From the NCBI GenBank assembly GCA_965215055.1, contig OZ244046.1, positions 1,199,202 to 1,263,201 of the forward strand: DNA of 64,000 nucleotides. Direction: 5' to 3'. Below, in pieces: positions 961 to 38,286 of the stretch. Both the position numbers and the translations under genes were made by a program. This DNA comes from Gammaproteobacteria bacterium. GTDB lineage: Bacteria > Pseudomonadota > Gammaproteobacteria > UBA4575. A model generated the notes under the pieces. The model did no database searches. It was given only the letters and a program-made list of their open reading frames with translations, and was not told where the DNA came from. Numbering within the stretch: position 1 is the stretch's first letter; every line of letters starts with the position of its first letter.

Positions 961-2348
961 ACCCACACACAGAAAAAACCTCCTGGTCACAAGCGCTACA
1001 CGTCTACCTGAAGCCACGCGTAATCGCCATGTTGTTTCTCGGCTTTTCGGCAGGCTTGCCTTTGCTGTTGGTATTCGGAACCCTGTCTTTCTGGCTACGA
1101 AAAGAAGGAATAGATCGAGCCATGATCGGTTATATTTCCTGGGTTGCCATTCTTTATGGACTTAAATTTGTGTGGGCACCCCTGGTAGATCGCCTGCCAC
1201 TGCCCATATTGACGAAAACTCTGGGACACCGACGTAGCTGGATGTTGTTAGCACAAATTGGTGTCATCTGTGGCCTGTGGATGATGGCAACTAGCGATCC
1301 TGTAACCGAGCTGACAAGGTTGACGCTGTTCGCTTTGTTGGTTGCTTTTTCTTCCGCCACTCAGGATATCAGTATTGACGCTTGGCGAATCGAGGCGGCA
1401 CCAGATGCTCAGCAAGGAGCTATGGCGGGGATGTATCAGTTGGGTTATCGCCTTGGTTTAATCCTGTCCGGTGGAGGTGCATTCTTGATTGCCGGTAGCT
1501 TTTCATGGAGCACAGCGTATTTCATGATGGGATTGGCGATGTCCGTCGGCATCATTACAACTTTGCTGGTTATCGAACCTGAACGGCAGACCGCACAACA
1601 AACATGGTTGCAGGAAGATCGTGTGACCAAGTTTCTTCGGAACTCTTCCCATATACCCAAGAATATTCGTTATCTCGTCGCCTGGATGATCGGTGCGGTG
1701 GTATGTCCATTCACCGATTTTTTTGCGCGTAAGGGTATTACAGCCGCACTGGTGATTTTGATTTTTATCGGCTTATTTCGGATTAGCGATATTACTATGG
1801 GTGTGATGGCAGGGCCATTTTATGCAGATATGGGATACACTGAAACTCAAGTTGGCCTTGTCTCCAAAACTTTCGGTGTGTTCGTCACTATATTCGGTGC
1901 GCTTTTAGGTGGCATCCTTATCATGCGCTATGGCTTCATGCGCATGCTGGTCGTTGCAGCAGCCTTGGTTACGCTCACTAACCTGGTTTTTGCATGGCTC
2001 GCAACGCAAGAGCCGGAAACCTCGTTGCTAGCACTTGTAATTGCCGCGGATAACTTGAGCGCCGGTATCGCTGGTTCTACGTTTATCGCTTATCTGTCCA
2101 GTCTTACCAGCCGCGCTTATACGGCTACGCAATATGCCCTGTTCAGTTCGTTGATGTTATTACCTGCCAAGTTTATTGGCGGGTTTTCCGGGCAAATTGT
2201 GGATGGCTACGGTTATGTAAGTTTCTTTATCTACGCTAGCCTGCTTGGTGTGCCGGCCTTACTTCTCGCAATCTACATGCAGACAAGGTATACGAGCACT
2301 ACCAGACCAAACGAAACTGAAGATACTTATATGTCCTCTGTTAAATAG
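957..2348 (+). CDS. ampG: muropeptide permease AmpG (MFS transporter)
   Basis: 463-aa polytopic membrane protein. The N-terminal LGFSAGLPLLL...KFVWAPLVDR signature is typical of AmpG. Its start overlaps the xthA stop by 4 nt. Confidence 0.8.
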   Translation: MNPHTEKTSWSQALHVYLKPRVIAMLFLGFSAGLPLLLVFGTLSFWLRKEGIDRAMIGYISWVAILYGLKFVWAPLVDRLPLPILTKTLGHRRSWMLLAQIGVICGLWMMATSDPVTELTRLTLFALLVAFSSATQDISIDAWRIEAAPDAQQGAMAGMYQLGYRLGLILSGGGAFLIAGSFSWSTAYFMMGLAMSVGIITTLLVIEPERQTAQQTWLQEDRVTKFLRNSSHIPKNIRYLVAWMIGAVVCPFTDFFARKGITAALVILIFIGLFRISDITMGVMAGPFYADMGYTETQVGLVSKTFGVFVTIFGALLGGILIMRYGFMRMLVVAAALVTLTNLVFAWLATQEPETSLLALVIAADNLSAGIAGSTFIAYLSSLTSRAYTATQYALFSSLMLLPAKFIGGFSGQIVDGYGYVSFFIYASLLGVPALLLAIYMQTRYTSTTRPNETEDTYMSSVK

Positions 2349-2422
2349 TATCAAGGGATAGATTTCCAATAACATTCCATTTTCTTTTGATCCAGCTTGC
2401 GAGATAACGCAGTTTGTTTGGT

Positions 2423-3061
2423 TCAGGGCTGGCTGCGCTTGCTTTTCACCCATTTTATGATGGGTTGCCACTGTTCACGGTCCACAGCGGTGGCAGAAGG
2501 CGCCATCTCAAAAATTCCCAAGCCTCGTTGTGCCGCCCGGATATAATGCTGGCTATCCCGTAACATGGTTAAAAATGGTATACGCTGTTTGCTCAGAAAA
2601 TCGTCCAGCTCCCAATAAATGTTAGTGAAGTCACGCGAACGATTAGCTACTAGAGCAAGTTTGACCCTTTTATTTTGCGCCGGTGCAGATTTTTTAATTT
2701 CAATAATAAAATCACTTGCCGCGCGCATATCTAATGGTGAAGGTAATACGGGAATTAGAACGGTTTGCGCCCTTCTCATCATTTTGCTTAATGCGCCGCC
2801 TCGCAATCCTGCCGGGGGATCGATAATCACATAATCGGTGTTGCGGCCAGGTTGCTTGCCCGTTGCGGCATAAGCGGCAATACCTCGAATCGGAGGACGC
2901 GCCGGAGAGCGCGCATTCAGCCATGCCATACTGCTGCCTTGTGGGTCGCGGTCTATCAAAACGACTTTGTTGCCTTGAGTTGCAAAGTATGATGCTAAAT
3001 TGGTGGCAATCGTAGTTTTACCTGAACCGCCTTTGGAATTTAGTATTATAATGCTGCGCAT
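2423..3061 (-). CDS. small orphan ParA/MinD-family P-loop ATPase (ParF-like)
   Basis: Deviant Walker A KGGSGKTT near the N-terminus, then DRDPQGS, at ParF-like length (~212 aa). Start taken at the internal Met (MRSIIILNSKGG) rather than the ORF-track start at 3091. No adjacent partner gene. Confidence 0.7.
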   Translation of the reverse strand: MRSIIILNSKGGSGKTTIATNLASYFATQGNKVVLIDRDPQGSSMAWLNARSPARPPIRGIAAYAATGKQPGRNTDYVIIDPPAGLRGGALSKMMRRAQTVLIPVLPSPLDMRAASDFIIEIKKSAPAQNKRVKLALVANRSRDFTNIYWELDDFLSKQRIPFLTMLRDSQHYIRAAQRGLGIFEMAPSATAVDREQWQPIIKWVKSKRSQP

Positions 3062-3330
3062 TTCATTCCTCCTCATTACTTGTTTAGCCAAGTTCCCCTG
3101 ACTTTAAGGCAACGCCGAACTTGAGTGTTTTTCAGATAGCTGAAGTGACATGATCCAAGGCGGCTTCACTATTTTAGACTAAGTGTTTGCTTTGCGGGTA
3201 TGGTTATTACTTATCATTTATCTCTCTGCAGAAGCAGTTGATTCAACTTCAGTTATTTTGATTAAAGAAACAACTATCTTGCATAATCAAGGATTTTAAC
3301 AACTTTTAGAGACAAATTCGCATATTTTAG

Positions 3331-4095
3331 CTACAAGAACTCTGCGATGACCGGCGTATGATCGGAGGGTCGCTTATTTTTGCGTGGTACTTTATCAATG
3401 CCGCTGAAACTACATCTCGCCTGCAGCGGTCTACTCGCCAAAATTAGGTCAATTCGCAATCCCATATTGCGTCGAAAGGCGGCCGCACGATAATCCCACC
3501 AACTAAAACTGTTTTCTTTCTGCTCAAATAACCGAAACGTATCAACGAAGCCCAAATTTAATATAGCTTTCAAGGCTTTACGCTCTTTGCTGCTACATAA
3601 AATTTTTTCCTCCCAGGCTATCGGATCATGCACATCTTGATCCTCAGGAGCAATGTTAAAATCTCCCAGCACGATGTATTTCGGGTATTTTTCAAGGTCT
3701 TTTTTAATGAAAGCGGTTACTTTCTTGAGCCAGTCCAGCTTGTATGTATATTTTTCGGACCCTACTTCCGAACCGTTCACGACATATAGGTTTAATATCC
3801 GCACGTCGGATACAGTAACCGCAAGAATTCGCCGCTGCGAGTCATCCAACCCCTCAATATTAACAAGTGTATCGCCGGCTGTTCGCTTTGATAGAGTCGC
3901 AACCCCGTTATAGGTGTTTTGCCCGCTGTACTCGCCATGATAGCCTCTCTGAGCAATTTCGGCTATCGGAAATTTTTCATCAACTACCTTGGTTTCTTGC
4001 AGCGCAAGCACATCTACGGGATTGGCATCAAGCCATTCCAAAACTTGCGGAAGGCGAACACGTAATGAATTTACATTCCATGAAGCTATTTTCAT
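3331..4095 (-). CDS. exodeoxyribonuclease III family protein (second ExoIII/Ape-type paralogue)
   Basis: 254 aa. MKIASWNVNSLRVR...LALQETK...GDFNIAP...SDHTPV are ExoIII/EEP-fold motifs. The protein is clearly diverged from the xthA copy at 172-960. Confidence 0.8.
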   Translation of the reverse strand: MKIASWNVNSLRVRLPQVLEWLDANPVDVLALQETKVVDEKFPIAEIAQRGYHGEYSGQNTYNGVATLSKRTAGDTLVNIEGLDDSQRRILAVTVSDVRILNLYVVNGSEVGSEKYTYKLDWLKKVTAFIKKDLEKYPKYIVLGDFNIAPEDQDVHDPIAWEEKILCSSKERKALKAILNLGFVDTFRLFEQKENSFSWWDYRAAAFRRNMGLRIDLILASRPLQARCSFSGIDKVPRKNKRPSDHTPVIAEFL

Positions 4096-4294
4096 GTCTT
4101 GGCCGGCCTAAACAGCGTTTAAGGACGTTCTTTTAGTATGAATGTATCGTCAACGGCTATCAAACCCGATTAAATACATTTGAGATTCAGGAAGTATCCG
4201 GAAATTCAGATATCAAGCTTTATAGCCAGAGATCGAACACTTTGCTCTGGGACGGAAAGCATTATGTACGGTATACTGGAATATAATAATTGTA

Positions 4295-6751
<2,457 letters not shown>

Positions 6752-6756
6752 TTACC

Positions 6757-6772
6757 TGTTTCACGTGAAACG
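6757..6772. promoter_or_regulatory. parS-like centromere site TGTTTCACGTGAAACG
   Basis: Palindromic 16-mer matching the consensus parS TGTTTCACGTGAAACA at 15 of 16 positions. It lies in the gyrB-dnaN intergenic spacer. Confidence 0.6.
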
Positions 6773-6898
6773 TTTTGCTTAGCTAACTTTCTTCATCAAG
6801 ACTAATATGTCGCTATATGCTGGGAAAATGGACACATCTTCTTAAATTTTTCCCTATCTTGTCCCATTCCCTTTGTTTCTAAAAAGAAATGAACCAAG

Positions 6899-8008
6899 TC
6901 ACAAACGCATAGGCATTATAACATATCGGCTTCCTTGCTCACCTGATGATTCATCAGGAAGAATTAAGGCGCTACTGCTCGCATCCTTTATGAAAATCTT
7001 TACTGCTTCAGATTCCAGTACGTTCAGCACGTCTATTAGATAGGTAACATTGAACCCAACTTCAAGCTTCTCACCTTTGTAATCAATCTCTATTTCCTCT
7101 TCTGCCTCTTCGTGCTCTGGATTATGCGTCTGAATTAGCATTATACCGTCATCCAAAGTAAGCCGGACACCCTTATACTTGTCATTGGAAAGAATTGAAA
7201 CTCTCGCAAGGGCTTGCTTAAAAATATCTTTCTGTATCACTACACAATTACCTTCTTCGTTTGGCAATACACGTTGATATTCCGGAAAACGTCCATCAAT
7301 CAGTTTTGAAGTAAGCCGAAAGTCAGAAAGAGAAACTTGAAGATGGTCCTTTCCCAGTGACACCATAATCTGATCATCCTCGTAGGCTAACAGGTGCTGT
7401 ATTTCTTGTATGCCTTTGCGTGGTACAATAATCTGCCTTGCTTCACTTAGGTCCGATGAGTGATCAATCTGAGATAAGGCAAGGCGATGTCCATCCGTAG
7501 CAACTGTTTTTATCCGTTGTTTATCTACTTCCAGCAACAAACCATTTAGATAGTAACGAACATCTTGTTGTGCTATAGCAAATGCTGTCTTCTCTATCAG
7601 ATTATGCAACTCTCTTTGAGAGACTGATATAGATTCATCTAATTTTATATCTTCAATAATTGGAAAATCTTCAGCAGGTAACGCCGCAAGTGAAAAGCGG
7701 CTCCGCTTTGAACTGATCTTTATTTTCTCATTGCTGGCTTCGATTTCGATCTGTGCTTGTTCCGGCAACGAGCGACAAATATCCAGTAACTTGCGAGCTG
7801 GAATAGTTGCACTATCATCACTTTGAAGTTCAACTTTCAAGTTGGAGACAAGTTCAACTTCCAAATCTGTTGCTGTTATGGAAAGGTTTCCCTCACTTCC
7901 TTTAAAAAGTAAATTATTTAAAATCGGTATAGTTTGTCTTCGCTCTACCACGCCGCTGATTTGTTGTAAGGGAGCTAATATATCCTCACGTTTAATTGAT
8001 AATTGCAT
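6899..8008 (-). CDS. dnaN: DNA polymerase III beta sliding clamp
   Basis: 369 aa, three-domain clamp. The conserved C-terminus ends ...MPMRL. Confidence 0.95.
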   Translation of the reverse strand: MQLSIKREDILAPLQQISGVVERRQTIPILNNLLFKGSEGNLSITATDLEVELVSNLKVELQSDDSATIPARKLLDICRSLPEQAQIEIEASNEKIKISSKRSRFSLAALPAEDFPIIEDIKLDESISVSQRELHNLIEKTAFAIAQQDVRYYLNGLLLEVDKQRIKTVATDGHRLALSQIDHSSDLSEARQIIVPRKGIQEIQHLLAYEDDQIMVSLGKDHLQVSLSDFRLTSKLIDGRFPEYQRVLPNEEGNCVVIQKDIFKQALARVSILSNDKYKGVRLTLDDGIMLIQTHNPEHEEAEEEIEIDYKGEKLEVGFNVTYLIDVLNVLESEAVKIFIKDASSSALILPDESSGEQGSRYVIMPMRL

Positions 8009-8042
8009 AGGTACTATTTACTGTTATTAGTTGGAAAAGATT

Positions 8043-8051
8043 TTGTGGAAA
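8043..8051 (-). promoter_or_regulatory. DnaA-box-like 9-mer (TTTTCCACA on the minus strand)
   Basis: One mismatch to TTATCCACA. Located in the unusually long AT-rich dnaA-dnaN spacer (8009-8199). Confidence 0.3.
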
Positions 8052-8199
8052 ACTTGGATATTTCCCATTTAATCAATGAGTTAAATAAAACTAATCGTGG
8101 TGAAATGCTTGTTTCTTTTACAATTATCGGGGAGTAACTTGTAATTTAATAATTGCTTGTACTTTTATTACTTGTTTATCGCTCGTTACTCACAGCTTA

Positions 8200-9549
8200 T
8201 TAACTGCTCAGTTTACGCAGTAAATTAGTGTAGTCATCACTAATGTTTATGTCATTCTTGCGTAAGCTGTCAATCTTCTTACGGGCATGTAGTACTGTCG
8301 TGTGGTCACGCCCCCCAAATGCATCTCCGATTTCGGGTAAACTATGATTTGTTAATTCCTTGGCTAATGACATAGCTATTTGTCGCGGCCGTGCAATGGA
8401 GCGACTCCGTCTCGCGGATAGCAAGTCAGAAACTCGTAGATTATAGTACTCAGCTACGGCCTTTTGAATATTATCGATGGAAATAAGTTTGTTCTGTAGA
8501 GCAAAAAGGTCATGTAGAGTATTCTTAACAAAATCGAGAGTGATCGTGGAGCCAGTAAATCGAGCATTGGCAACTACTCTACGCAAGGCGCCTTCTAGTT
8601 CTCGGATATTAGACCGAATCTGTTTGCCTATGAGAAAAGCTACTTCCGTCGGCAGGTCCACGTTTAGTAGTTTTGCTTTGCTTTGTATAATAGCAACACG
8701 TGTTTCTAGTTCGGGTGGCTCTATGGCTTGTGTTAAACCCCAGCTAAAGCGTGACTTCAACCTCTCTTCCAAGCCGCTTACTTCTTTTGGGTAGCGATCA
8801 CAAGTCAGAATAACTTGTCGTTGTCCCTCCAGTAGTCTATTGAAAGTATGAAAAAACTCCTCTTGGGAGCGGGTCTTACCTGCAAAAAACTGGATGTCGT
8901 CGATTAACAGGGTATCTATGGAGCGATAATAATGTTTGAATTCACGGATAGTGTTGTGTTGTAGGGCATTTACCATGTCGGCAACAAACCGCTCGGAATG
9001 TAAGTAAACGATCTTTGTAGAAGGATGTTTTCCCCGTATGTAATTGCCGATTGCATGTAATAGGTGAGTCTTGCCTAAACCCACTCCTCCATAGATTAAA
9101 AGTGGGTTATAAGCTTCTCCAGGGTGGCTAGCTACTTGCATCGCAGCCGCTTTTGACAGTTGGTTTGATTTACCTTCGACGAAGGTATCAAAAGTGAATC
9201 TCGGACTGAGATTACAAGGGATTTCATTAGGTTTTGCTAAGATACTTTTGGTTGGGTAGGTGTCTCCTGTTACTCTAGAAGGTGAGGGATTGTATTCATT
9301 ACTCCCGATCTCCAATGTGACATGATTGGTTCCGGGTTCCCCGTTTGTCATGTGGACGAATTCATTAATGCGATGTAAGAAATGGCTGTATACCCAATTT
9401 AGCACAAAGCGGTTGGGTGCAAGCAATGTTAGCTTACCTTTATGTTCTACTGCGTGTAGTGGGCGGATCCAGGTGTTAAGCTGTTGCTCGGACAGTTCTG
9501 ATTCGAGTTGATGTACACATGCTTTCCAAAGAGTAGGGGAGCTGGTCAT
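8200..9549 (-). CDS. dnaA: chromosomal replication initiator DnaA
   Basis: 449 aa. AAA+ Walker [12 protein letters not shown], sensor motifs and the C-terminal DNA-binding domain ([14 protein letters not shown]...). Confidence 0.97.
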
Positions 9550-9745
9550 GCTTCAAAATTCAGTTTGCTTCGAGTAGCTTGAAGGTAGAATATGGAGAGG
9601 GCTAGTGTATCTACTAACGAAACGAGTATCTATTATTTTTAACCTCTCCTTTGAAAATAAATTATTGACAAAGACAGGAAGCAGAACTATTTTTGTGCAC
9701 CTTATCAGGATGTCATCTTAAGTACCCAATGTTAGAGGTAGATTT
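9550..9745. promoter_or_regulatory. candidate oriC / dnaA promoter region (rpmH-dnaA spacer)
   Basis: AT-rich 196-bp spacer in the position where oriC sits in Pseudomonas-type origins. Contains GTATCTATTATTTTT (9626-9640), which resembles the E. coli DUE 13-mer GATCTnTTnTTTT, and a weak DnaA-box-like TTATCAGGA (9702-9710). No strong consensus DnaA boxes were seen. Confidence 0.35.
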
Positions 9746-9880
9746 GTGAAGCGCACGTATCAGCCCAGTAACATAAAGCGCGCCCGCGCGCATGGATTCA
9801 GGGCAAGAATGAGAACGAAAAGTGGCCGCGCGATAATCAAGGCTCGCCGCGCACGTGGCCGCGCGCGGATATGCTCATAA
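9746..9880 (+). CDS. rpmH: 50S ribosomal protein L34
   Basis: GTG start, 44 aa [44 protein letters not shown]. Absent from the ORF track because it is under 60 aa. Confidence 0.9.
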
Positions 9881-26522: not shown

Positions 26523-28358
26523 ATGTGTGGAATTATTGGTGCTGTTGCAAATAGAGACGTGGCGCAAGTCTTGTTGGAAGGTCTGCATCGCCTGGAATAT
26601 CGAGGCTATGATTCCGCAGGCATGGTAGTGCTTGAGAACGGTGTGCTCAACCGCATTCGCAAAACGGGGAAGGTGCATGAATTAAGCAAGGCTCTGGACA
26701 AGTTTGCACTGGCGGGAGAACTGGGCATTGCCCATACTCGTTGGGCTACACATGGTGCACCGGCGGAAAATAATGCTCACCCGCATATTTGCAATAATCG
26801 GGTTGCCATTGTGCACAATGGCATTATCGAAAATTTTGAAACACTCAAAGCGCAACAAACTGCGCAAGGATTCAATTTTACCTCGGATACCGATACCGAA
26901 GTCATTGCCCACCAGATCGTCTTTTACCTGGACCAGGACAACGATTTTTTTACCGCCGTAAGTCGGGCAGCGGCAGACTTGAAAGGTGCTTACGCCCTGG
27001 GCGTGATCGATAAAAATAATCCTCAAAAATTGATTGCAGCACGCAATGGTAGCCCACTGGTTATCGGCAAAGGAGAAAACGAAAATTTTATCGCCTCCGA
27101 TGTACAGGCTTTAATAAGAGAGACACAAAAATTCATCTTTTTGGAAAACGGTGACATCGCGGAAATTACGAGCAACTCGATAAAAGTCGTCGATCAAACG
27201 AATGCACGTGTCAAGCGCAATGCAAAAACCAGCAAGCTATCCGCGAACGTTGGAGAAAAAGGCGATTACTCGCACTACATGCTTAAAGAGATTTATGAAC
27301 AGCCTCAGGCTATCGCTGATACGCTTGAAGGAAGGCTTGCCAACGGTCGGCTTGCACGGCAAATCCTCACGCCGCAGGCCGAGGAAACTTTACATCAAGC
27401 CAAGGCAATACAGATTGTTGCCTGCGGCACGAGCTATCATGCCGGGCTCGTCGCCAAGTTCTGGTTTGAAGAATTTGTGCGCCTTCCCTGTTCTGTAGAC
27501 GTTGCCAGTGAATTTCGTTATCGCAAGCACGTTATTCAACCGGACACGTTATTTATCGCTGTTTCCCAATCTGGTGAAACGGCAGACGTACTGGCCACGT
27601 TGCGACAGGCCAAACAAGAGGATTACATTGCTACGCTCGCTGTTTGCAACGTCCCGGAAAGCTCACTGGTGCGTGAATCGGATATAGTGTTGATGACTCA
27701 TGCCGGCCCCGAAATAGGAGTGGCTTCTACCAAAGCCTTTACCACACAACTGGTGGCGTTGCTGATGTTAGTGATTATCGCTAGCCGTCGTCACGAGACG
27801 CATGATGAACTTGAAAAAATGTTGGTCGAACAGCTTGTAACCTTGCCAACGCGAATTAATGAAGTGCTTGAACTCGATGCCAGAGTTAAAAAACTGGCCG
27901 AATACTATGGTGATAAAGAACATGCACTGTTCCTGGGTCGGGGTACTCATCATCCGGTGGCCAAAGAGGGCGCGCTGAAGCTGAAAGAGGTGTCCTACAT
28001 TCACGCCGAAGCTTACCCTGCCGGTGAATTAAAGCACGGCCCTATTGCCTTGATAGATACCAAGACACCTGTTGTTGCCGTGGCGCCCAATAACCAACTA
28101 TTAAAAAAACTGAAATCCAATATAGAAGAAGTACATGCACGTGGCGGTGTTCTACATGTATTTGCAGACGTCAATTCCAATCTTGCCGCCGCAGCCAAAA
28201 ATAACGTTACTGTTTTGGAAATTAATGCACCGGAAAATGCCGTCGCCCCGATCATTTTTAGCGTGCCTTTACAACTGCTTGCTTATCACGTCGCGGTTCT
28301 GAAAGGAGCCGACATTGATCAGCCCAGAAATTTAGCCAAATCTGTTACAGTGGAATAA
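26523..28358 (+). CDS. glmS: glutamine--fructose-6-phosphate aminotransferase GlmS
   Basis: 611 aa. N-terminal MCGIIGAV (Ntn Cys), two SIS domains, C-terminal ...SVTVE. Confidence 0.97.
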   Translation: MCGIIGAVANRDVAQVLLEGLHRLEYRGYDSAGMVVLENGVLNRIRKTGKVHELSKALDKFALAGELGIAHTRWATHGAPAENNAHPHICNNRVAIVHNGIIENFETLKAQQTAQGFNFTSDTDTEVIAHQIVFYLDQDNDFFTAVSRAAADLKGAYALGVIDKNNPQKLIAARNGSPLVIGKGENENFIASDVQALIRETQKFIFLENGDIAEITSNSIKVVDQTNARVKRNAKTSKLSANVGEKGDYSHYMLKEIYEQPQAIADTLEGRLANGRLARQILTPQAEETLHQAKAIQIVACGTSYHAGLVAKFWFEEFVRLPCSVDVASEFRYRKHVIQPDTLFIAVSQSGETADVLATLRQAKQEDYIATLAVCNVPESSLVRESDIVLMTHAGPEIGVASTKAFTTQLVALLMLVIIASRRHETHDELEKMLVEQLVTLPTRINEVLELDARVKKLAEYYGDKEHALFLGRGTHHPVAKEGALKLKEVSYIHAEAYPAGELKHGPIALIDTKTPVVAVAPNNQLLKKLKSNIEEVHARGGVLHVFADVNSNLAAAAKNNVTVLEINAPENAVAPIIFSVPLQLLAYHVAVLKGADIDQPRNLAKSVTVE

Positions 28359-28450: not shown

Positions 28451-29584
28451 CTATATATCCAGTTCCGGTAATAACGATAGCAAATATTCTGCTAATCGGC
28501 GTTTTCCAGCAGCTGAACTGAAAGAGCCAGCGGCCCCTCTGTAACCTGTCCTCCAAAATTCTGCTCCCTGGACTGATACTCCCTCGCCATTCAACCCGTC
28601 TATATCATTCAAGGCTTTGTTTAGAAACGGTACATAGGACTCTGGTTCAAAGAGAGAGCCACCCTCAGAGCGGGCTAGGTCGAGCACAACTGGAAAAATT
28701 GAATGAAGCGCATCAACGCCAACTCCCTTTTGAATATTGTAATCTGATGGGAACTCAAAAGTTTTTGGCAGTACGCGACGAACGGCACGCCAATAGGCAT
28801 CTATTACCTGTGCCTGCCTTTCATGTGACCTGATATTTTGGAAAAGAGCAGTCTGTGTCAACAAGAGCTTGAGAGACCTAACGAACGATGCAGATGGTAC
28901 GGTCGTGTCACCCTTAGGCATGTTGGGCAATCGGATACGATCTTTCCAAGTACTCGAAGATTGCGACAAACGTTCGGTGAGAATTTGTGCATTGATTTCC
29001 CATGTCTTACCTCTCTCTTCAACCTCTTTCGCAAAAGAAGGATCGCTTGCAGCACGCGCTTTCATTAAATCTAAAGCAAGATCGGTTGGAACAGATTTTG
29101 CGTTCGAATTTACTACATGGAATTGCTTCATTTCACTACTTTCATCGGCACCGATCATGCACACGAAAGGAATTTTTATATTTTGAACATCTGCATCATA
29201 CTCATCTATCGCCTTTTGAAGAGCGAGAATCCGGTGTTGTCCATCAACCACCAGTAAGCAATGATCATTGGATGCCTTGTCTGGATTAAGGCAGAGGATA
29301 TAATTATCTGAACCATCCCTAGTGAGAACATCTTTCTCTTTTGCATTTCGCAAATTGAGCAGTACTGATGTTGGCAAATCCACAGTTTTCTTTGAGATTT
29401 CTCGTGCAAGTTGAGTGATTCGCGATTCTTTTGGATTACGTTGATACCCTGTTTCTTTGAGAACGTTTCGGTGGGGAACATGATGGTGTAATATCAATAC
29501 GCGAGCAGGCATTACACCAACAACGGTTATAATTTTATTTCGTAACGTTGGTCCCCGAACTACTCGCACTTTTGATGTACTCAT
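28451..29584 (-). CDS. DGQHR-domain protein (DndB-like, ParB/Srx-fold), solitary
   Basis: Contains the literal VVDGQHR motif together with upstream QR/NP-type motifs. ~377 aa from the ATG at 29584, which has an AAGGAAAAA RBS (the ORF track extends to 29623). By eye it is lower in GC than the flanking core genes. No dndCDE genes are nearby. Confidence 0.7.
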   Translation of the reverse strand: MSTSKVRVVRGPTLRNKIITVVGVMPARVLILHHHVPHRNVLKETGYQRNPKESRITQLAREISKKTVDLPTSVLLNLRNAKEKDVLTRDGSDNYILCLNPDKASNDHCLLVVDGQHRILALQKAIDEYDADVQNIKIPFVCMIGADESSEMKQFHVVNSNAKSVPTDLALDLMKARAASDPSFAKEVEERGKTWEINAQILTERLSQSSSTWKDRIRLPNMPKGDTTVPSASFVRSLKLLLTQTALFQNIRSHERQAQVIDAYWRAVRRVLPKTFEFPSDYNIQKGVGVDALHSIFPVVLDLARSEGGSLFEPESYVPFLNKALNDIDGLNGEGVSVQGAEFWRTGYRGAAGSFSSAAGKRRLAEYLLSLLPELDI

Positions 29585-29755
29585 AAATTTTTCCTTTGAA
29601 ATTAGGCTTAAAATCCTGCGCATTATACATAAAATAAAAAAGTGAGCAAGAATATAGAGCAGAAAAATTATGATTCCATCTTAGATCAAATTTAAAAATC
29701 TACTCTCCGGGTTTGGTTTATAATAGCGATAACACCTTCCGTCAGAGGGGTAATC

Positions 29756-30584: not shown

Positions 30585-30660
<76 letters not shown>

Positions 30661-31900: not shown

Positions 31901-31974
31901 TGGAGCGGGTGATGGGAATCGAACCCACGTTCTCAGCTTGGGAAGCTGATGTTCTACCATTGAACTACACCCGC
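31901..31974 (-). tRNA. tRNA-Gly(CCC)
   Basis: Minus-strand 74 nt GCGGGTGTAGTTCAATGGTAGAACATCAGCTTCCCAAGCTGAGAACGTGGGTTCGATTCCCATCACCCGCTCCA. Anticodon loop TTCCCAA. Confidence 0.85.
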
Positions 31975-32053: not shown

Positions 32054-32254
32054 ATGAAAATTACTGTAAATGGTGAGCAAACTGAGGTGGCGAACGGCAT
32101 GACCGCCTATCTGCTGCTTGAGGAACTCGGCCTGACGGAACAAAGGCTTGCGCTGGAGATCAACGAAGAAATAATACCGCGCAGTGTATTATCGCAACGT
32201 GTGCTACAAGCGGATGATCGTGTGGAAATCATTCATGCCGTCGGTGGAGGTTGA
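32054..32254 (+). CDS. thiS: sulfur carrier protein ThiS
   Basis: 66 aa ending in the diagnostic C-terminal GG (…IIHAVGGG). Ubiquitin-like size. Confidence 0.8.
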   Translation: MKITVNGEQTEVANGMTAYLLLEELGLTEQRLALEINEEIIPRSVLSQRVLQADDRVEIIHAVGGG

Positions 32255-32358
32255 GTTGGTTTTGAGGACAAAATAGGGGGAGTCATATTTCACGAAAGAT
32301 ATGAAAACGGTCGTGCAGTGTTGACTATATCAACACGATGTTGATTTAAGTAGTTGGA

Positions 32359-32459
32359 TTTTACTCTTTAGGGATAGTGTGGTCCGGCGGTTGCCAATAT
32401 AATTCTGCGGAAATGTTCAAGGTCTCTATCATGGCGGCATTGTCTGCTGTGACTTCAAC
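32359..32459. repeat. left copy of a ~100-bp imperfect direct repeat flanking the thiS/thiG insertion
   Basis: Aligns colinearly with 37288-37389 at roughly 80% identity. Shared blocks include TTTTACTCT, GGTTGCCAATA, ATTCTG and TTCAAGG. Weaker similarity extends ~30 bp further upstream (ATGTTG). Confidence 0.7.
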
Positions 32460-32555: not shown

Positions 32556-33581
32556 ATGCTTTCTTTTAGTTGTACGACTCACCTGAAAAATTCTCTCAAC
32601 GCGAGAAATTACATGCGGGAACGCGCTTCAAGGAACCAGACGCTGTCATGCACAAGTGAGGATATCATGAGGCTGTCTCATGACATCATGCGGGTGGAAA
32701 CGACTGTTACCCAGAGAGATATCGAGGACCGAGTCATTGGTGGAGATATTTTCGATGTGGTGAGATATTTTCCCGCCTCATTTGTTGATCTCCTCATTTT
32801 AGACCCTCCGTATAATCTATCTAAGAATTTCAATGGGAATTTATTCAGAAAGAAAGAAAAACAAGAGTATGTTTTGTGGTTTGAGAGTGTTATTGAATTA
32901 CTAGACCCATTGATGAAGCCAACAGCGACAATATACGTATGCTCAGATTGGAAAACATCTACGCTTGTTTATCCGATATTGGAATCAAAATTTTCTGTGA
33001 GAAACAGAATTACATGGGAGCGAGAAAAAGGACGTGGTTCAAAGATAAACTGGAAGAATAATACGGAAGATGTCTGGTTTTGTACAAAGTCTGACCGCTA
33101 CTTTTTTGATGTTGATGCAGTAAAGCTAAAGAAGAAAGTTCTTGCACCCTATAGAATAAATGGAAAGCCGAAAGACTGGAGACAGGAGCAGAAGGGTAAT
33201 TATCGCTTGACACACCCATCCAATATTTGGACTGATTTGACGATCCCGTTCTGGTCGATGCCGGAAAACACCGATCACCCCACTCAAAAACCAGAGAAAT
33301 TGATTGCGAAACTTATTCTCGCGAGTTCGAAGAAAGGAGACTTTGTGTTTGATCCGTTCCTTGGTAGCGGCACGACTGCGGTTGTAGCAAAGAAATTGTC
33401 AAGGCGCTGGTGTGGGGTTGAGCTTAATTCTGAATACCTTTGCTGGGCACTAAAACGTGTCGTTGCCGTAACGAAAAACTCGACAATCCAGGGATATGAA
33501 AACGGTGTGTTTTGGGAGAGAAACTCACTCCCCAATCGAAATAAGGAAGCCTATAACTTTCAGGAAACCTTGTTCCCGTGA
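32556..33581 (+). CDS. type II DNA methyltransferase, beta-class (N6-adenine or N4-cytosine; DPPY motif)
   Basis: Motif IV ILDPPYNL lies N-terminal and motif I FDPFLGSGTTAVVA lies C-terminal, which is the beta-group order. AT-rich coding sequence. The true start may be one of several internal Met codons. Confidence 0.8.
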   Translation: MLSFSCTTHLKNSLNARNYMRERASRNQTLSCTSEDIMRLSHDIMRVETTVTQRDIEDRVIGGDIFDVVRYFPASFVDLLILDPPYNLSKNFNGNLFRKKEKQEYVLWFESVIELLDPLMKPTATIYVCSDWKTSTLVYPILESKFSVRNRITWEREKGRGSKINWKNNTEDVWFCTKSDRYFFDVDAVKLKKKVLAPYRINGKPKDWRQEQKGNYRLTHPSNIWTDLTIPFWSMPENTDHPTQKPEKLIAKLILASSKKGDFVFDPFLGSGTTAVVAKKLSRRWCGVELNSEYLCWALKRVVAVTKNSTIQGYENGVFWERNSLPNRNKEAYNFQETLFP

Positions 33582-34246
33582 GATCGGGTTTTTATTATAA
33601 AGGCTACTACAAAGCGATAGCTTCAAATATCAGAGAGTATATCAACTCGTTACAAGATTTCCTTTCGCCTGAAACGGCATGTAGTCCTAGAGCTGTTGGC
33701 GATGCACTTGAATCACTTGTGGCAGAAAAGTTTGATACCTTCCTTGGGGATTGGTGCAAAGAATACTCGAGAGATTTTGCCCGCCGCGCCATGGCTGACA
33801 TGGCATTTACTGATAAGGAAGGCATTTATTCCGTAATAGATGTCAAAACTCACAGAGAAGACACCAAATTCAACATGCCTAACCTTACTTCAGTAGAACG
33901 ATTGGCTCGGTTTTATGAGTCTGATGCCAATGTTTTCTCCCTTATCATAATTAAATATTCGATTGAAGGCACAAATATCGAAGTATCGGAGGTTTTATTT
34001 TCACCAATCGAATTTCTGGACTGGAGTTGCTTGACTGTAGGTGCGCTTGGCTGGGGCCAGATTCAGATCGCGAATTCCAATGATATCCGTATTATAGATA
34101 AATTCTCACGAAAGAAATGGATGTTACAGCTATGTGATGTGTTAATGGAATTTTATCCGAGAGAAATTGGCAAAATCCGGGACAGGATCGATCGCTTCAA
34201 CACGGTAAGGGAGTATTGGGAGTCAAAAGAAGACGTTTGGACTTGA
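33578..34246 (+). CDS. putative type II restriction endonuclease (PD-(D/E)XK-like)
   Basis: 222-aa ORF. Its GTG start overlaps the methyltransferase stop (GTGA). Candidate catalytic motif FTD...VIDVK. No family I can name with certainty. Assignment rests on linkage, size and motif. Confidence 0.5.
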   Translation: MRSGFYYKGYYKAIASNIREYINSLQDFLSPETACSPRAVGDALESLVAEKFDTFLGDWCKEYSRDFARRAMADMAFTDKEGIYSVIDVKTHREDTKFNMPNLTSVERLARFYESDANVFSLIIIKYSIEGTNIEVSEVLFSPIEFLDWSCLTVGALGWGQIQIANSNDIRIIDKFSRKKWMLQLCDVLMEFYPREIGKIRDRIDRFNTVREYWESKEDVWT

Positions 34247-34282: not shown

Positions 34283-35404
34283 ATGAACTCGGAACGCCAT
34301 ATGGATCGCCTGCCCCCTGAGTGGACGTGGTGGCAACGTGATCTCGTTATTTTAGGTGAGTTGCTGGTGTACGGTACTGGCATTGCTTTTGCAGCGATCT
34401 GCCTGAGCCTCCTATTTGAGAATCCACTACAATTAAAATGCGAATGTTGGTTGTATGTACTTGGAATCCTATTTCTAGTTGGGCTCTATATGGTTCGTCT
34501 CCTGCGGCATCCTTTTCGAGTACATGAAGAGAGGCTCGTTGATCGCACGGAAGTCGAAGCATTATTTAAGCAGGCATCTCCAGATGCCGGTAAAAATCTC
34601 CGTAAGCTTATTAAATGTCTCGAACACGAAGGTCCAAGCACATGGACGGAATATAGAATTCTACCCGTAGAGCAGGATGCATTGAAACGGCTTTCTGCCA
34701 AAGATTTGATTGCTAAAGCGCATGCGCGACTAGACGATCTCAAGGAATACGATGAAAAAAGAGGTGAGGAAGAGAAAGAGTACTTTAATAAGCGTGAAAA
34801 GCGATTACACAAGTCCATTAAGACGTTAAAAGAGGAGTTAAAAGAGACCAGTTCATCAGATACGGAGAAAGTTAAGCGTAGAAAAAAAGCAAAAAAAGCC
34901 TTGAGAGCAGACTTGGGAATGCTTCTTGAAACGCTCGCCGATTATGACAAGAACTGGGCAATTGGATCGGAAATATTGCGAGCATTATTGATAGTCATTT
35001 CATTCACTATACCCATTTTATTGGTTTTGGGAGTAGCTCCGGTTCTTATGCCACCAAGAGAAAGTCTTGGATTTGTCAATTGGGCACTTTTGGGGGTAGC
35101 GGGATCACTCACAGCAGTATTACGAAAGCTTTATTTGGGTAGTAAAGTGGAGGTTGGAGATACAGAAGGAAAAAACGAGTTATACCAAACTATCAAGGGT
35201 GCAGTTTTGGGTTTGGTCTCCGGGGTTCTAGTCTTTGCGATGCTCTCGGGTAATATTATATCGAAGGGAACCATAGTGCCTGATGTGGATAGCTGTGACT
35301 TAAAGCAGATTTATCTCTCTGTTTTCTGGGCTTTTATGGCTGGGTTCGCGTTTGAAAATTTCTTCGATAAAGTTCAACGAGAACAGATCGGAAAATACAA
35401 CTGA
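34283..35404 (+). CDS. hypothetical membrane protein with central coiled-coil/charged region
   Basis: 373 aa. Two N-terminal hydrophobic helices, then a ~130-aa highly charged K/E-rich segment (KEYDEKRGEEEKEYFNKREKRLHKSIKTLKEELKE...KVKRRKKAKKALRADL), then 3-4 C-terminal TM helices. No recognisable family. Confidence 0.5.
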   Translation: MNSERHMDRLPPEWTWWQRDLVILGELLVYGTGIAFAAICLSLLFENPLQLKCECWLYVLGILFLVGLYMVRLLRHPFRVHEERLVDRTEVEALFKQASPDAGKNLRKLIKCLEHEGPSTWTEYRILPVEQDALKRLSAKDLIAKAHARLDDLKEYDEKRGEEEKEYFNKREKRLHKSIKTLKEELKETSSSDTEKVKRRKKAKKALRADLGMLLETLADYDKNWAIGSEILRALLIVISFTIPILLVLGVAPVLMPPRESLGFVNWALLGVAGSLTAVLRKLYLGSKVEVGDTEGKNELYQTIKGAVLGLVSGVLVFAMLSGNIISKGTIVPDVDSCDLKQIYLSVFWAFMAGFAFENFFDKVQREQIGKYN

Positions 35405-35408
35405 TAAA

Positions 35409-35816
35409 ATGGTTGGAAAATCAGTCCATAAACATAGCCCGCATGCTAAAGTCTACGGCTTCGAGCTAATTATCGATTTGAAGAATTGTAGTCCATCTCT
35501 TTTCAATCGTAAATCTCTCGACAATTACTTTAGTCAACTGTGTGATCTTATTTCAATGAAGAAGGCAGAGGTGTATTTCTGGGACGATGTTGGAGTAGCA
35601 CCAGAGGAACAACAGACCGCCCCGCATACAAAGGGGACCTCGGCAGTCTGCTTTATTTTGACGAGTTCGATAGTAATCCATACGCTCGATGTTTTGAGAA
35701 CCGTGTATGTCAATATTTTTTCTTGTAAAGTGTTCGATCCTAATATTGCGGTGGAATTTACTAGAGATTGGTTCAGCGGTGAGGTCCAAAATTCCACGTT
35801 TATCGAACGGCATTAG
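35409..35816 (+). CDS. SpeH/AdoMetDC-fold (pyruvoyl-dependent decarboxylase-like) small protein
   Basis: ~135 aa from the ATG at 35409 (the ORF track starts at 35352 and overlaps the previous gene). Aligns with class-1 bacterial/archaeal S-adenosylmethionine decarboxylase proenzymes. HAKVYGFELIIDLKNC matches the GRHVIAELWDC-type N-terminus. The conserved His (IVIHTL) and Cys (IFSCKV) are present. The usual E-S-H processing site is replaced by T-S-S. Confidence 0.6.
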   Translation: MVGKSVHKHSPHAKVYGFELIIDLKNCSPSLFNRKSLDNYFSQLCDLISMKKAEVYFWDDVGVAPEEQQTAPHTKGTSAVCFILTSSIVIHTLDVLRTVYVNIFSCKVFDPNIAVEFTRDWFSGEVQNSTFIERH

Positions 35817-35830: not shown

Positions 35831-37189
35831 ATGATAATTAGAGAAAAATCGATGACCATCCCAGTTCCTTCTGATCGTCACAATCTTATAGAACATGTCC
35901 GAGCGAGCGCCAATTTCCAACTGAAGGCAGATGAAATCCCAGTGCGCTATGCAGTGACGGAATCAAATGAGACTCAATATGTCTGTGAGATCGGTGTTGT
36001 TGCCGATGCCAATGCCGAGATAATCAGGAAAGTGCCAGATCTTTTCACATTCCGGGCTAGGCATTTGGCAACATCGGCCAGTTTTAATGCCGTGTTATTG
36101 GTGCCTACTGGAATCGGGTCGGATATTGGTGGTCACGCAGGAGATGCGACCGCGGTCGCCCATCTTGTTGCAGAGAGTTGCGACACGCTCGTCTTGCATC
36201 CGAACGTGGTGAACGCATCTGACATAAATGAGTTACCCAGTAACGCTTTATATGTAGAAGGGAGTATAGTTACACGGCTTCTGATGGGAACGATAGGCTT
36301 AGTTCCAGTTCGATCAAATCGGGTCTTAGTGATACTGGATGAACACATGGATAGACACTTCGTAGACATGGCTGTCAACTCGGTAAGCTCTGCCCGAGCT
36401 ACTTACGGTTTAGATTGCCCTGAGGTGGTCTGTCTAAATCCCTCTATTCGCATGAGCGCCGAATACTCAGAATCGGGATGTGCTGTGGGTCGAGTCGAGA
36501 ACATCGAGCATTGCCTTCAGGTTCTTAGTGACTTGAAGGAGCAATACGATGCGGCAGCGTTATCGTCCGTTATAAGGGTTCCTCATGAGTTTCATTTGGA
36601 CTATTTCCATCAGCAAGGAGAGATGGTTAATCCTTGGGGGGGTGTGGAAGCCATGCTGACACATACCTTGTCGTCTTTTCTAAACGTGCCGAGTGCACAT
36701 TCGCCCATGTTCGAGTCAAGGAAGATAGAAAATCTGGAGGCTGGTCGGGTTGAGCCTCGAATGGCGGCGGAAGCAGTATCGCTTACCTTTTTGCAGTGTA
36801 TCCTGAAGGGGTTACAAAAAAGCCCCAGGATAATCGAGGACGAGTCGCTATTTCATCGGTCCGATGTGTTTTCTGCTGAAGATGTGTCGTGTCTAATTGT
36901 TCCTGATGGCTGCCTCGGGTTACCCACGATGGCGGCCCTTGAGCAAGGCATTCACGTGATCGCCGTTCGTGAGAATCGAAACTTGATGAAAAACGATCTA
37001 GCGAGATTACCTTGGCGAAAGGGGCAGCTTATCGTAGTACAGAATTACCTGGAAGCCGTGGGTGTAATGAACGCGCTTAAGGCGGGAGTCACTTTGGAAT
37101 CTGTTCGCCGCCCAATTTTAGACACAAGGGTAACTTCGAAGTCGACCAGTTTTTTGAGTGACAGTGCCCGTACAGATAGTTGTTCATAG
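35831..37189 (+). CDS. hypothetical ~452-aa soluble protein
   Basis: ATG at 35831 with a GAGGGGG RBS (the ORF track starts at an overlapping GTG at 35816). Carries a glycine-rich block LLVPTGIGSDIGGHAGDATAVAHL. No family I can name. Confidence 0.5.
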   Translation: MIIREKSMTIPVPSDRHNLIEHVRASANFQLKADEIPVRYAVTESNETQYVCEIGVVADANAEIIRKVPDLFTFRARHLATSASFNAVLLVPTGIGSDIGGHAGDATAVAHLVAESCDTLVLHPNVVNASDINELPSNALYVEGSIVTRLLMGTIGLVPVRSNRVLVILDEHMDRHFVDMAVNSVSSARATYGLDCPEVVCLNPSIRMSAEYSESGCAVGRVENIEHCLQVLSDLKEQYDAAALSSVIRVPHEFHLDYFHQQGEMVNPWGGVEAMLTHTLSSFLNVPSAHSPMFESRKIENLEAGRVEPRMAAEAVSLTFLQCILKGLQKSPRIIEDESLFHRSDVFSAEDVSCLIVPDGCLGLPTMAALEQGIHVIAVRENRNLMKNDLARLPWRKGQLIVVQNYLEAVGVMNALKAGVTLESVRRPILDTRVTSKSTSFLSDSARTDSCS

Positions 37190-37287
37190 AAATTTCTGAC
37201 CAAAATTTGGCACTTGTTGAGTCCGAGCAGAAAGTGCTCCGAATACAACCCAAATCCAATGCCAAAATGTTGGTCACTGTGAGGGGC

Positions 37288-37389
37288 TTTTACTCTGTGA
37301 GAGTGGTGTGATCCGACGGTTGCCAATACGATTCTGAGGAGATATTCAAGGCCTCCAACACGGTGGTATCGCCCGCTTCAATTATTGAC
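37288..37389. repeat. right copy of the ~100-bp imperfect direct repeat, immediately upstream of thiG
   Basis: See the left copy at 32359-32459. Confidence 0.7.
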
Positions 37390-37458: not shown

Positions 37459-38286
37459 ATGCCTCCTATACCAGTACCAGAGTTTTTGACCGATCAGGAT
37501 GCGCAGGCCCATGATGTTCTTACCATTGCCGGCAAGCACTATACTTCGCGTCTGTTGGTAGGAACTGGCAAATACAAGGGTTTACCGGAAACACGTGCGG
37601 CGATTGTAGCGAGTAATGCCTCGATCGTAACGGTGGCACTGCGCAGGACTAATATCGGGCAGGAAAAAGGGAAACCCAACCTGCTTGACTTTATCCCACC
37701 GTCCGAGTTTACGATTTTACCCAATACTGCCGGTTGTTATTCTGCCAAAGACGCGGTGCGTACCTGTCTTTTGGGGCGTGAGTTGCTGGACGGGCAGGCG
37801 CTGGTAAAGTTGGAAGTGCTTGGTGACGAGAAAACGTTGTATCCAAACATCGTGGAGACAATAGCCGCCACCAAGACGTTAATGAAAGAAGGCTTTGAAA
37901 TCATGGTGTATACCAATGATGATCCTGTTATCGCCAAGCAACTGGAGGAAATGGGATGTGTGGCCGTAATGCCTCTGGCGGCACCGATCGGTTCCGGTCT
38001 TGGGATTCGTAATCCGTACAATATTCTTACTATCGTTGAAAATGCCAAGGTGCCGGTTCTGGTTGACGCCGGTGTTGGCACGGCCTCCGATGCGTCGATA
38101 GCAATGGAATTGGGCTGTGACGGAGTGTTGATGAATACCGCTATTGCACAAGCAAAGAACCCCCTGATGATGGCCACTGCAATGAAAAATGCGGTCGTGG
38201 CGGGTCGACAGGCGTTTCTTGCTGGGCGCATGCCGAAACGCCGCTATGCGTCGGCTTCGTCGCCCGTTGAGCATACCTTTTATTAA
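37459..38286 (+). CDS. thiG: thiazole synthase ThiG
   Basis: 275-aa TIM-barrel ThiG (…RLLVGTGKY…). AGGGGT RBS upstream. Confidence 0.9.

Follow-up and report, generated by a model that had tools for sequence, protein, structure and literature searches.

What does a protein do that has the fold of a small S-adenosylmethionine decarboxylase (AdoMetDC) but not the usual residues around the serine at which such proenzymes cut themselves? The question is raised by a gene at positions 35409 to 35816 of a 64,000-nucleotide stretch of DNA (hereafter the window) from a gammaproteobacterium of the lineage UBA4575 (assembly GCA_965215055.1, contig OZ244046.1, positions 1,199,202 to 1,263,201). A sequence-only reading of the gene had assigned its product to the AdoMetDC/SpeH fold, had called the processing site non-canonical and had suggested that the protein might still self-process, might be a non-catalytic or binding variant or might have acquired a new substrate, as have the arginine decarboxylases of this fold. 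The explanation that we favor overall, with moderate confidence, is that the protein is a decarboxylase which would form a two-enzyme, polyamine-forming module with the DUF3326 protein encoded directly downstream. Statements about function draw here on sequence, structure prediction, gene context and one preprint, and should be read as predictions.

Fold, catalytic residues and kinship with SpeDC

The gene and the features within it are as follows.

35409 to 35816, + strand: AdoMetDC-fold, SpeDC-like proenzyme of 135 aa (open reading frame [ORF], Pfam PF02675, structure match)
35661 to 35669, + strand: predicted self-cleavage site, codons of Thr85-Ser86-Ser87 (aligned to Glu62-Ser63-His64; same Thr-Ser in SpeDC)
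35679 to 35726, + strand: His91-to-Cys106 segment, with predicted catalytic and processing residues (His91 and Cys106 invariant; spacing Ser+5, His+15)
35577 to 35642, + strand: family-specific insert of the beta chain, residues ~57 to 78, FWDDVGV..EEQQT.PHTKGTS (invariant columns in a 33-sequence alignment)

The ORF starts with an ATG at 35409 and ends with a TAG stop at 35814 to 35816. An in-frame TTG at 35352, within the 3' end of the preceding gene, is an alternative start; the choice is immaterial because the conserved core begins at Tyr16. The Pfam family AdoMet_dc (PF02675) matched with an E value of 1.4e-13 and 51.5 bits, against a gathering cut-off of 25, over profile positions 2 to 106 of 107. 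Since single-sequence and profile searches of PDB sequences were only marginal, finding 1vr7 alone (E 1.3 and 0.21), it is the model that shows the fold, the alpha/beta sandwich of the small prokaryotic AdoMetDCs. The AlphaFold model, built on 33 homologues, had a mean pLDDT of 88.6, and its best PDB matches with Foldseek were the structures of the Thermotoga maritima AdoMetDC (1vr7/1tlu/1tmi), with template modeling (TM) scores of 0.70 to 0.80, ~19% identity and E values down to 5e-8; the top matches also included 2iii and the small AdoMetDC of Aquifex aeolicus (E 5e-8 to 6e-7 and TM scores of 0.68 to 0.80 overall). The fold assignment of the sequence-only reading was thus borne out.

In a HMMER alignment to 1vr7 (T. 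maritima residues in native numbering), Thr85, Ser86 and Ser87 fell on Glu62, Ser63 and His64, His91 on His68 and Cys106 on Cys83. The T. maritima enzyme requires Ser63, His68 and Cys83 both to process itself and for catalysis (Li et al. 2023, PMC10407285). The spacing of Ser86, His91 and Cys106 (+5, then +15; codons at 35664 to 35666, 35679 to 35681 and 35724 to 35726) is the same as that of the T. maritima triad, and every motif named earlier, LT-SS-IV (Thr85-Ser86-Ser87), SIVIH (His91), NIFSC (Cys106) and VFDPNIAVEF, is present. Thr85, Ser86, His91, Thr92, Leu93, Asp94, Phe104, Ser105 and Cys106 were invariant in the alignment of 33 homologues (59 to 81% identity), as were Trp58, Asp59, Asp60, Gln69, Pro72, Gly76, Thr77 and Ser78 of the insert, where the local pLDDT was lower (~73). 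From 5.8 billion proteins, 1,601 homologues were retrieved, and the best 120 of these all read ...GTSAV(C/Q)FILTS(S/T)IV(I/V)HTLD...VNIFSCK...; among 1.84 billion cluster representatives, 87 clusters matched at E ≤ 1e-30, 443 at E ≤ 1e-10 and 1,352 at E ≤ 1e-3. One further copy of the gene, at 4615 to 4974 of locus L098, was uncalled in the source annotation. Cleavage at the predicted site would yield a beta chain of residues 1 to 85 (9.6 kDa) and an alpha chain of residues 86 to 135 (5.8 kDa) with an N-terminal pyruvoyl group.

The residue that precedes the processing serine varies among AdoMetDC classes, being Glu in class 1b and in eukaryotes and Lys in Escherichia coli SpeD, so that Thr-Ser is non-canonical relative to SpeH only. 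A precedent is provided by SpeDC, the pyruvoyl-dependent L-ornithine decarboxylases (ODCs) derived from class 1b AdoMetDCs (Li, Liang, Phillips & Michael, J Biol Chem 2023, PMC10407285). The SpeDC junction reads ...QLIE-T-S... (PMC10407285, Fig. S5), and the ODC halves of SpeD1SpeD2 fusions read ...QLIETS(L)(I/V)SGHF..., with processing serines that were verified by mutation (PMC10407285). Thr85-Ser86 of the window protein thus corresponds to the IETS of the Omnitrophica, Desulfotignum and Leptospira SpeDC proteins. The site does differ from the Glu-Ser-His of SpeH and SpeD, as had been said, but alignment places it as an ordinary site of the SpeDC lineage, not a degenerate one. Because the triad is invariant, its spacing canonical and Thr-Ser cleavage functional in SpeDC, the suggestion of a non-catalytic or binding variant appears unlikely.

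Profile comparison pointed in the same direction. With hhalign, the family profile matched the ODC half of the "Candidatus Omnitrophica" SpeD1SpeD2 protein over 93 columns (Prob 94.7, E 5.6e-8) and the AdoMetDC half over 43 columns (Prob 13.6, E 2e-3); the sequences of the halves were taken from supplement text by optical character recognition, and the result was checked with a real Leptospira sequence. The latter is the best annotated relative that tblastn found in the plasmid collection, the second SpeD homologue on chromosome II of Leptospira interrogans (36% identity, E 7e-14), whose gene lies between canonical speD and speE; the adjoining speD was unmatched. This is the speD/speDC/speE gene order that is already on record (Li et al., PMC10407285). 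The Leptospira protein carries FQLIETS...FSCKCYDPKVAAEFTRKF, and its C-terminal domain reads FQLIETSCISAHF...SYIDIFSCKCYDPKVAAEFTRKFF. Its N-terminal region looks SET-like by eye.

The window protein shares with SpeDC the small AdoMetDC fold, the Thr-Ser site, the His at +5, the Cys 15 residues further on and a C-terminal half of the form IFSCK.(F/Y)DP..A.EFT..(W/F)F.G. Other positions set the two apart. The SpeDC Gln at Ser-5 (a position deduced from Fig. S5) is Cys81 in the window protein and in most close homologues, although it is found in the divergent relatives L056, L087 to L091 and P0390; and the SpeDC Phe at His+1, in GHF/AHF (likewise read from that figure), is Thr92, invariant in the family. 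For the diagnostic Tyr, whose position the paper does not state, two places come into consideration: Tyr100 (Cys-6) matches the SpeDC pattern Y-I/L-D-I/V-F-S-C, and at Cys+3 the window protein has Phe109 and SpeDC has Tyr. The invariant insert ahead of the cleavage site is ~10 residues longer than the corresponding part of SpeDC, and longer than that of SpeD too. The usual partners also differ: speD/speE, hss or casdh/casdc for SpeDC, and DUF3326 for the window family. Given Cys for Gln, Thr for Phe and the longer invariant insert, we place the family, on its sequence, as a large sister group of SpeDC and not as SpeDC sensu stricto.

Could the protein nevertheless be a genuine S-adenosylmethionine (SAM) decarboxylase (EC 4.1.1.50), the decarboxylated SAM being used by DUF3326 as a novel aminopropyl transferase or by another enzyme? 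Its Pfam family is AdoMet_dc and its best fold matches are AdoMetDCs, and within the wider clade that has the Thr-Ser site, members occur with SET (P0352), with a spermine-synthase-like fold (P0311) and, in four to six loci, with PRMT-like methyltransferases. The comparison with class 1b AdoMetDC (SpeH/SpeD; T. maritima TM0655, 1tlu/1vr7), which is close in fold, triad, spacing and size, tells otherwise in its details. Identity is 19%, Thr-Ser-Ser replaces Glu-Ser-His, and the protein scored 23.6 bits with the NCBIfam equivalog TIGR03330 (SAM_DCase_Bsu), whose cut-off is 75.65. The Pro of HTWPE, which is fully conserved in true AdoMetDCs and sets them apart from arginine decarboxylases (PMC10407285), is not present; the window protein reads His91-Thr92-Leu93-Asp94, with Leu93 and Asp94 family-invariant. 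Similarity to the AdoMetDC half of the fusion was far below that to the ODC half, and no Spermine_synth/speE gene, the spermidine synthase partner of class 1b enzymes, was found among the scanned neighbours in the window or the annotated recurrent neighbour families of 85 loci fetched via the decarboxylase. Finally, the slot ahead of DUF3326 is also filled by a pyridoxal 5'-phosphate (PLP)-dependent decarboxylase of the alanine-racemase fold, a family not known to act on SAM (see below). We consider a true SAM decarboxylase very unlikely. The protein fails the sequence tests for a true AdoMetDC and is probably not a SAM decarboxylase, and its predicted substrate is a cationic amino acid or a carboxy-polyamine. 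Among the options first offered for it, a new substrate is the best.

The DUF3326 partner and an NspC-like alternative to the decarboxylase

The genes on either side of the decarboxylase gene, both in the same orientation, are as follows.

35831 to 37189, + strand: DUF3326 protein, 452 aa (Pfam PF11805, E 1.5e-94)
34283 to 35404, + strand: membrane protein, 373 aa, no Pfam family (hydropathy); the variable third member of the cassette

The ATG of the DUF3326 gene at 35831 lies 14 nt past the decarboxylase stop codon, with GAGGGGG ahead of it. The gene could also begin with a GTG at 35816; the protein P0121, 100% identical to the window DUF3326, begins at ATG 35831. The protein consists of an N-terminal domain of ~85 residues and the DUF3326 core. 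Among the 85 loci, DUF3326 was directly downstream on the same strand in 83, the exceptions being a contig end and L065 (1 to 900), where a tRNA comes next. The loci came from Gamma- and Alphaproteobacteria, SAR324, Nitrospinota, Nitrospirota, Planctomycetota, Verrucomicrobiota, Bacteroidota, Acidobacteriota, Actinomycetes, Poribacteria, Entotheonella and Mesorhizobium. Even divergent decarboxylases with 43 to 47% identity keep x-T-S-(S/T)-IVIHTLD and are followed by a shorter DUF3326 protein that has no 85-residue N-terminal domain. Four IMG/VR contigs (L088 to L091, ~8000 to 9400) likewise carry decarboxylases with 43 to 59% identity and the short DUF3326 form.

Moreover, the two proteins occur fused in single ORFs, as in P0310 (562 aa) and P0390 (458 aa). 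Because the pairing is constant and such fusions exist, the sequences identify the decarboxylase and DUF3326 as a functional unit, and the two are probably a physical unit as well. P0250 was grouped with P0310 and P0390 among the natural fusions. P0135 (611 aa) was rejected as a fusion; it is a DUF3326 protein in which ~160 aa are duplicated internally, probably through an error of assembly. Fusions in the wider Thr-Ser clade (P0352, P0311, P0338) carry SET (P0352), a methyltransferase fold like that of spermine synthase (P0311) and a CxxCxxCC domain.

The DUF3326 protein itself gave few clues. Its model (pLDDT 84.7) had no PDB match at E < 1e-3 with Foldseek, which listed only lumazine-synthase-like and periplasmic-binding-protein-like alpha/beta domains; its profile gave nothing but noise against PDB sequences; and in Pfam scans of four sub-segments at E ≤ 10, DUF3326 alone matched. 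A literature search turned up no description of a pairing between an AdoMetDC-like protein and DUF3326, nor of a defence association of such a pair.

More was learned from a locus in which the decarboxylase is a different one. L093 (Planctomycetes; 5001 to 8714), reached via a distant homologue of the window membrane protein, has a cassette of membrane protein, NspC-like PLP decarboxylase and DUF3326, and no AdoMetDC-like sequence was found in the 11-kb locus. The PLP decarboxylase matched TIGR01047 (nspC) best (E 9.5e-85, 284 bits), ahead of lysA (E 1.2e-25, 90 bits). When metagenomes were scanned with this enzyme, 80 loci were retrieved (L099 to L178), of which 36 had an intact DUF3326 gene directly downstream; tblastn detected DUF3326 sequence in a 37th. 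The DUF3326 proteins beside NspC-like genes are of the long form and have 43 to 56% identity to that of the window, and are as similar to it as those beside the pyruvoyl enzyme. PtuA/PtuB genes occurred in 14 of the 36 loci, an unknown protein (c65) in 2 and major facilitator superfamily (MFS) transporters in 3. The NspC-like genes that had no DUF3326 beside them lay among housekeeping genes (Mur ligase, citrate synthase, malate dehydrogenase, NUDIX, HAD), with no dehydrogenase of the carboxynorspermidine dehydrogenase type nearby.

The appearance of a pyruvoyl or a PLP decarboxylase before the same DUF3326 is non-orthologous displacement. The NspC-like enzyme and its relatives, the carboxynorspermidine and carboxyspermidine decarboxylases (NspC/CANSDC/CASDC), share with the window decarboxylase the slot before DUF3326, the membrane-protein, PtuAB, c65 and transporter partners and the reaction proposed below, whereas fold and cofactor differ (PLP, alanine-racemase fold), so that the likeness is one of functional analogy only. 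Decarboxylases of the alanine-racemase fold are not known to act on SAM, and the substrate common to both enzymes should thus be an amino acid whose side chain is cationic.

The displacement also bears on whether the AdoMetDC-like protein could be a catalytically dead subunit that only binds or regulates DUF3326. Such a role would fit the obligatory pairing and the fusions, and there is a model for it in the trypanosome prozyme, an inactive AdoMetDC paralogue that acts as a regulator and whose structures were among the fold matches. However, the catalytic positions carry Ser, His and Cys without exception in members from different phyla, and replacement by an unrelated decarboxylase implies that the chemistry is selected and not a binding surface. 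We give a prozyme-like role hardly any credence.

Proposed order of the two reactions

We propose that the proenzyme would cleave itself between Thr85 and Ser86, with conversion of Ser86 to the pyruvoyl cofactor, and that the processed enzyme would decarboxylate an alpha-amino acid with a cationic side chain. DUF3326 would act first, building an N-alkylated amino acid (a "carboxy-polyamine") in place of carboxy(nor)spermidine dehydrogenase, and the pyruvoyl enzyme would then strip off the carboxyl group in place of carboxynorspermidine decarboxylase. Carboxy(nor)spermidine, ornithine and SAM are all 2-amino acids with a cation three to four atoms from the alpha carbon, a common layout that makes a substrate switch within the AdoMetDC fold plausible. 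Such switches are already documented, to ornithine and to arginine.

The one functional precedent for DUF3326 comes from pavettamine biosynthesis, in which PavB (DUF3326) and PavA are both required for formation of the triamine N-(5-aminopentyl)pentane-1,5-diamine, in Paraburkholderia and also in E. coli carrying the Burkholderia pseudomallei genes (bioRxiv 10.64898/2026.06.12.731819). The C-terminal part of PavA is annotated as carboxynorspermidine-decarboxylase-like, and although every strain contained cadaverine, no triamine was formed when PavB lacked PavA (bioRxiv 10.64898/2026.06.12.731819). The likeness to the window pair is that a decarboxylase and DUF3326 are jointly needed; PavB is likened to the window DUF3326 by family name only. 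PavA differs in being a 1119-aa fusion of a Rieske protein and a PLP decarboxylase, and the pavettamine cluster contains a JmjC hydroxylase (PavC) and no AdoMetDC-fold protein.

The reverse order has also to be weighed. Here the decarboxylase, as a SpeDC-like ODC or lysine decarboxylase (LDC), would act first to give a diamine, and DUF3326, as a non-homologous analogue of homospermidine synthase, would condense two diamines to a symmetric triamine. The family is indeed nearest to the ODC clade of SpeDC and shares its Thr-Ser site; in two-gene homospermidine pathways, speDC is found clustered with hss (PMC10407285); and sym-homospermidine has its cadaverine analogue in the PavAB product, C5-N-C5. 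Yet the gene that replaces the pyruvoyl enzyme resembles NspC and not ODC, LDC or diaminopimelate decarboxylase, PavA too is annotated as CANSDC-like, and endogenous cadaverine did not enable PavB alone to make the triamine (bioRxiv 10.64898/2026.06.12.731819). In addition, the Gln (Ser-5) and Phe (His+1) that are diagnostic of SpeDC, as read from the figure, are replaced by Cys and Thr. A decarboxylase-first order is thus an unlikely alternative, though one that we take seriously. We favor the order in which DUF3326 acts first because the alternative partners resemble NspC and not ODC or LDC, and because PavB plus cadaverine was insufficient.

Several points count against a module in which DUF3326 makes a carboxy-polyamine for the pyruvoyl enzyme. 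The predicted self-cleavage is deduced from conserved residues only, and kinship with SpeDC would fit equally well with a decarboxylase that takes ornithine or lysine in the opening step. In the Thr-Ser clade, some members are fused to, or lie beside, SAM-using domains, which keeps a SAM-related substrate in play. The NspC-like partner scored 284 bits, below the nspC equivalog cut-off of 409. DUF3326 has no informative fold match and no sequence link to any dehydrogenase or synthase, so that its proposed chemistry rests on analogy and on one preprint that holds no enzymology. Lastly, a plain biosynthetic role would leave unexplained the operon linkage with the Septu genes ptuAB, to which we turn now.

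Mobile setting, changing neighbours and meaning

In the window, the pair belongs to a block that lies between two repeats.

32356 to 32448: left 93-nt direct repeat, just downstream of thiS (repeat search and alignment)
32556 to 34246, + strand: type II restriction-modification (RM) pair (N6_N4_Mtase, E 8.6e-45)
37285 to 37377: right 93-nt direct repeat, 75% identical to the left one, just upstream of thiG

The genes thiS (32054 to 32254; PF02597, E 2.2e-13) and thiG (37459 to 38286; ThiG Pfam, E 3.9e-107), which normally adjoin, are separated here by a five-gene, 4.9-kb insertion. It begins with the RM pair, an N6/N4 methyltransferase (32556 to 33581; PADLOC MTase_II, E 4e-60) and a candidate endonuclease of 222 aa (33578 to 34246; REase_II weakly, E 1.5e-3; no Pfam family), whose genes overlap by 4 nt. 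The membrane-protein gene follows, ending 4 nt before the start of the decarboxylase gene; its product has two N-terminal transmembrane segments, a charged helical region of ~150 residues and three or four C-terminal transmembrane segments. Because thiS and thiG are split, the direct repeats bracket the block and the left part of the insert is of lower GC content (42 to 43%, against 49 to 51% outside), the sequence indicates that the cassette came in within the 4.9-kb insertion together with the RM system. A scan for promoters and terminators gave nothing above shuffled expectation to define an operon, and a Rfam scan found two tRNAs only and no riboswitch.

Each repeat contains a short minus-strand ORF that ends ...LNIS.E.YWQP.DHT...E*. 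A DndB-like gene (DNA-sulfur-modification-associated; 28451 to 29623, - strand) lies just downstream of glmS (26523 to 28358), a region that is a classic integration hotspot; tRNA-Thr (30585 to 30660) and tRNA-Gly (31901 to 31974) are close by.

In the 85 loci, the neighbours within 3.5 kb of the pair fell into the following classes, with L026, which has both a membrane protein and PtuAB, counted once.

Window-type membrane protein: 25 loci (26 with L026)
yjf-like ligase cluster: 23 loci
Septu PtuA/PtuB, or PtuB alone: 16 loci (L026 included)
PRMT-like methyltransferase and/or cyclase-TPR protein: 6 loci
Other: 15 loci

The classes are mixed on the DUF3326 tree, so that the pair forms a constant core around which neighbours change. 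A homologue of the membrane protein stood directly upstream in 26 of the 85 loci, and also in L093 to L095 and L097. In 23 loci the gene just ahead of the pair encoded a GSP_synth (YjfC-like) ATP-grasp ligase (E 4.7e-129) and was part of a cluster that resembles yjfIJKLMC of E. coli (DUF2170, PspA/IM30, DUF2491, DUF350, DUF1190 and GSP_synth). In yjf-like loci the pair sits at the cluster end (L019, L034 to L036, L049, L058, L061, L070 to L076 and L085; L036 at ~2000 to 9777), sometimes with a TrkA-type K+ channel. Characterised ligases of the GSP_synth family join polyamines to carboxylates, and the arrangement suggests that the YjfC-type ligase uses the product of the pair. MFS transporters flank other pair loci. 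PRMT-like and cyclase-like/TPR genes precede the pair in L027 (346 to 2658), L046, L054 and L056, and the PRMT-like protein matches the PADLOC model mad2 (E 3e-15). Under the two-enzyme module, the polyamine-like product would pass to whichever partner is at hand: the six-transmembrane protein in the window, a possible exporter, and elsewhere an MFS transporter, a YjfC-type ligase similar to glutathionylspermidine synthase, or Septu PtuAB.

The Septu linkage invites a further reading, compatible with the proposed enzymology, in which the pair is a component of anti-phage or stress defence whose product, or whose depletion of a substrate, acts with PtuAB, with the membrane effector or with the Psp/YjfC envelope-stress cluster. 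PtuA and PtuB, confirmed by PADLOC (E ~1e-45), lie beside the pair in the same orientation in 16 of the 85 loci, and also in L096; in ~10 loci the PtuB stop codon is within 40 nt of the decarboxylase start or overlaps it. Upstream of the NspC-like version they occur in 14 of 36 loci, where they belong to the same subfamily (36 to 52% identity to those of pyruvoyl-type loci). Tight same-strand arrangements of PtuAB and the pair are seen in L005, L008, L009 (5663 to 9799), L018, L032, L052, L069, L079, L081, L083 and L096, and for the NspC-like type in L099 to L126. The identity of PtuA tracks that of DUF3326 (Spearman rho 0.64), although common host phylogeny may account for this. Furthermore, the window cassette shares one 4.9-kb insertion with a type II RM system, and other flanks hold ParE and HigBA-type toxin-antitoxin genes, transposases, a serine recombinase, RHS and SNF2/DUF1156 genes.

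Other observations speak for caution about a defence role. No PADLOC-DB 2.0 model matched the decarboxylase or DUF3326 at E ≤ 0.1, and the membrane protein gave only noise; the neighbour counts are raw and not set against background frequencies; and many loci, those of the yjf-like and "other" classes, lack any recognisable defence gene. Septu itself, a PtuA ATPase and a PtuB HNH nuclease, has homologues in tight operons with the pair in many genomes, but PtuAB is not in the window, and known Septu systems have no decarboxylase or DUF3326 component. The plasmid collection held no DUF3326 whatsoever. The viral collection had only six pair loci in 2.9 million, so that the pair is not a typical phage gene; its rarity on viral contigs argues neither for nor against defence. 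On balance we regard a defence role as possible but doubtful. Put more specifically, PtuA-PtuB-decarboxylase-DUF3326 and the variant with the window-type membrane protein may be an undescribed defence or stress system, in which a two-enzyme module, with a decarboxylase of either of two folds, would make or consume a polyamine-like small molecule, and a Septu-type nuclease or a membrane effector would be armed, regulated or complemented by it. DUF3326 would then supply the missing enzyme for a polyamine-forming reaction that is both new and widespread; this we offer tentatively, as an idea that is rather unlikely to hold.

What is new is the fixed partnership with DUF3326, the exchange with an NspC-like PLP decarboxylase and the recurrent operon linkage with Septu. 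The sequence-only reading had contained neither the DUF3326 partner, the SpeDC kinship and the NspC-like replacement nor the mobile and defence-type context. If the two-enzyme module is real, AdoMetDC-fold pyruvoyl enzymes would have a third substrate class, and DUF3326, a family of thousands of proteins that extends to cyanobacteria and plants and for which one 2026 preprint is the sole earlier functional hint, would gain a testable role. The exchange of pyruvoyl and PLP enzymes before one partner is a natural experiment that points to candidate substrates, and the occurrence of Septu operons with either type of decarboxylase points to a small-molecule arm in what is currently viewed as a two-protein nuclease. 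The pair is widespread among marine, sediment and sponge-associated bacteria from many phyla and is horizontally mobile, so that its product may matter ecologically.

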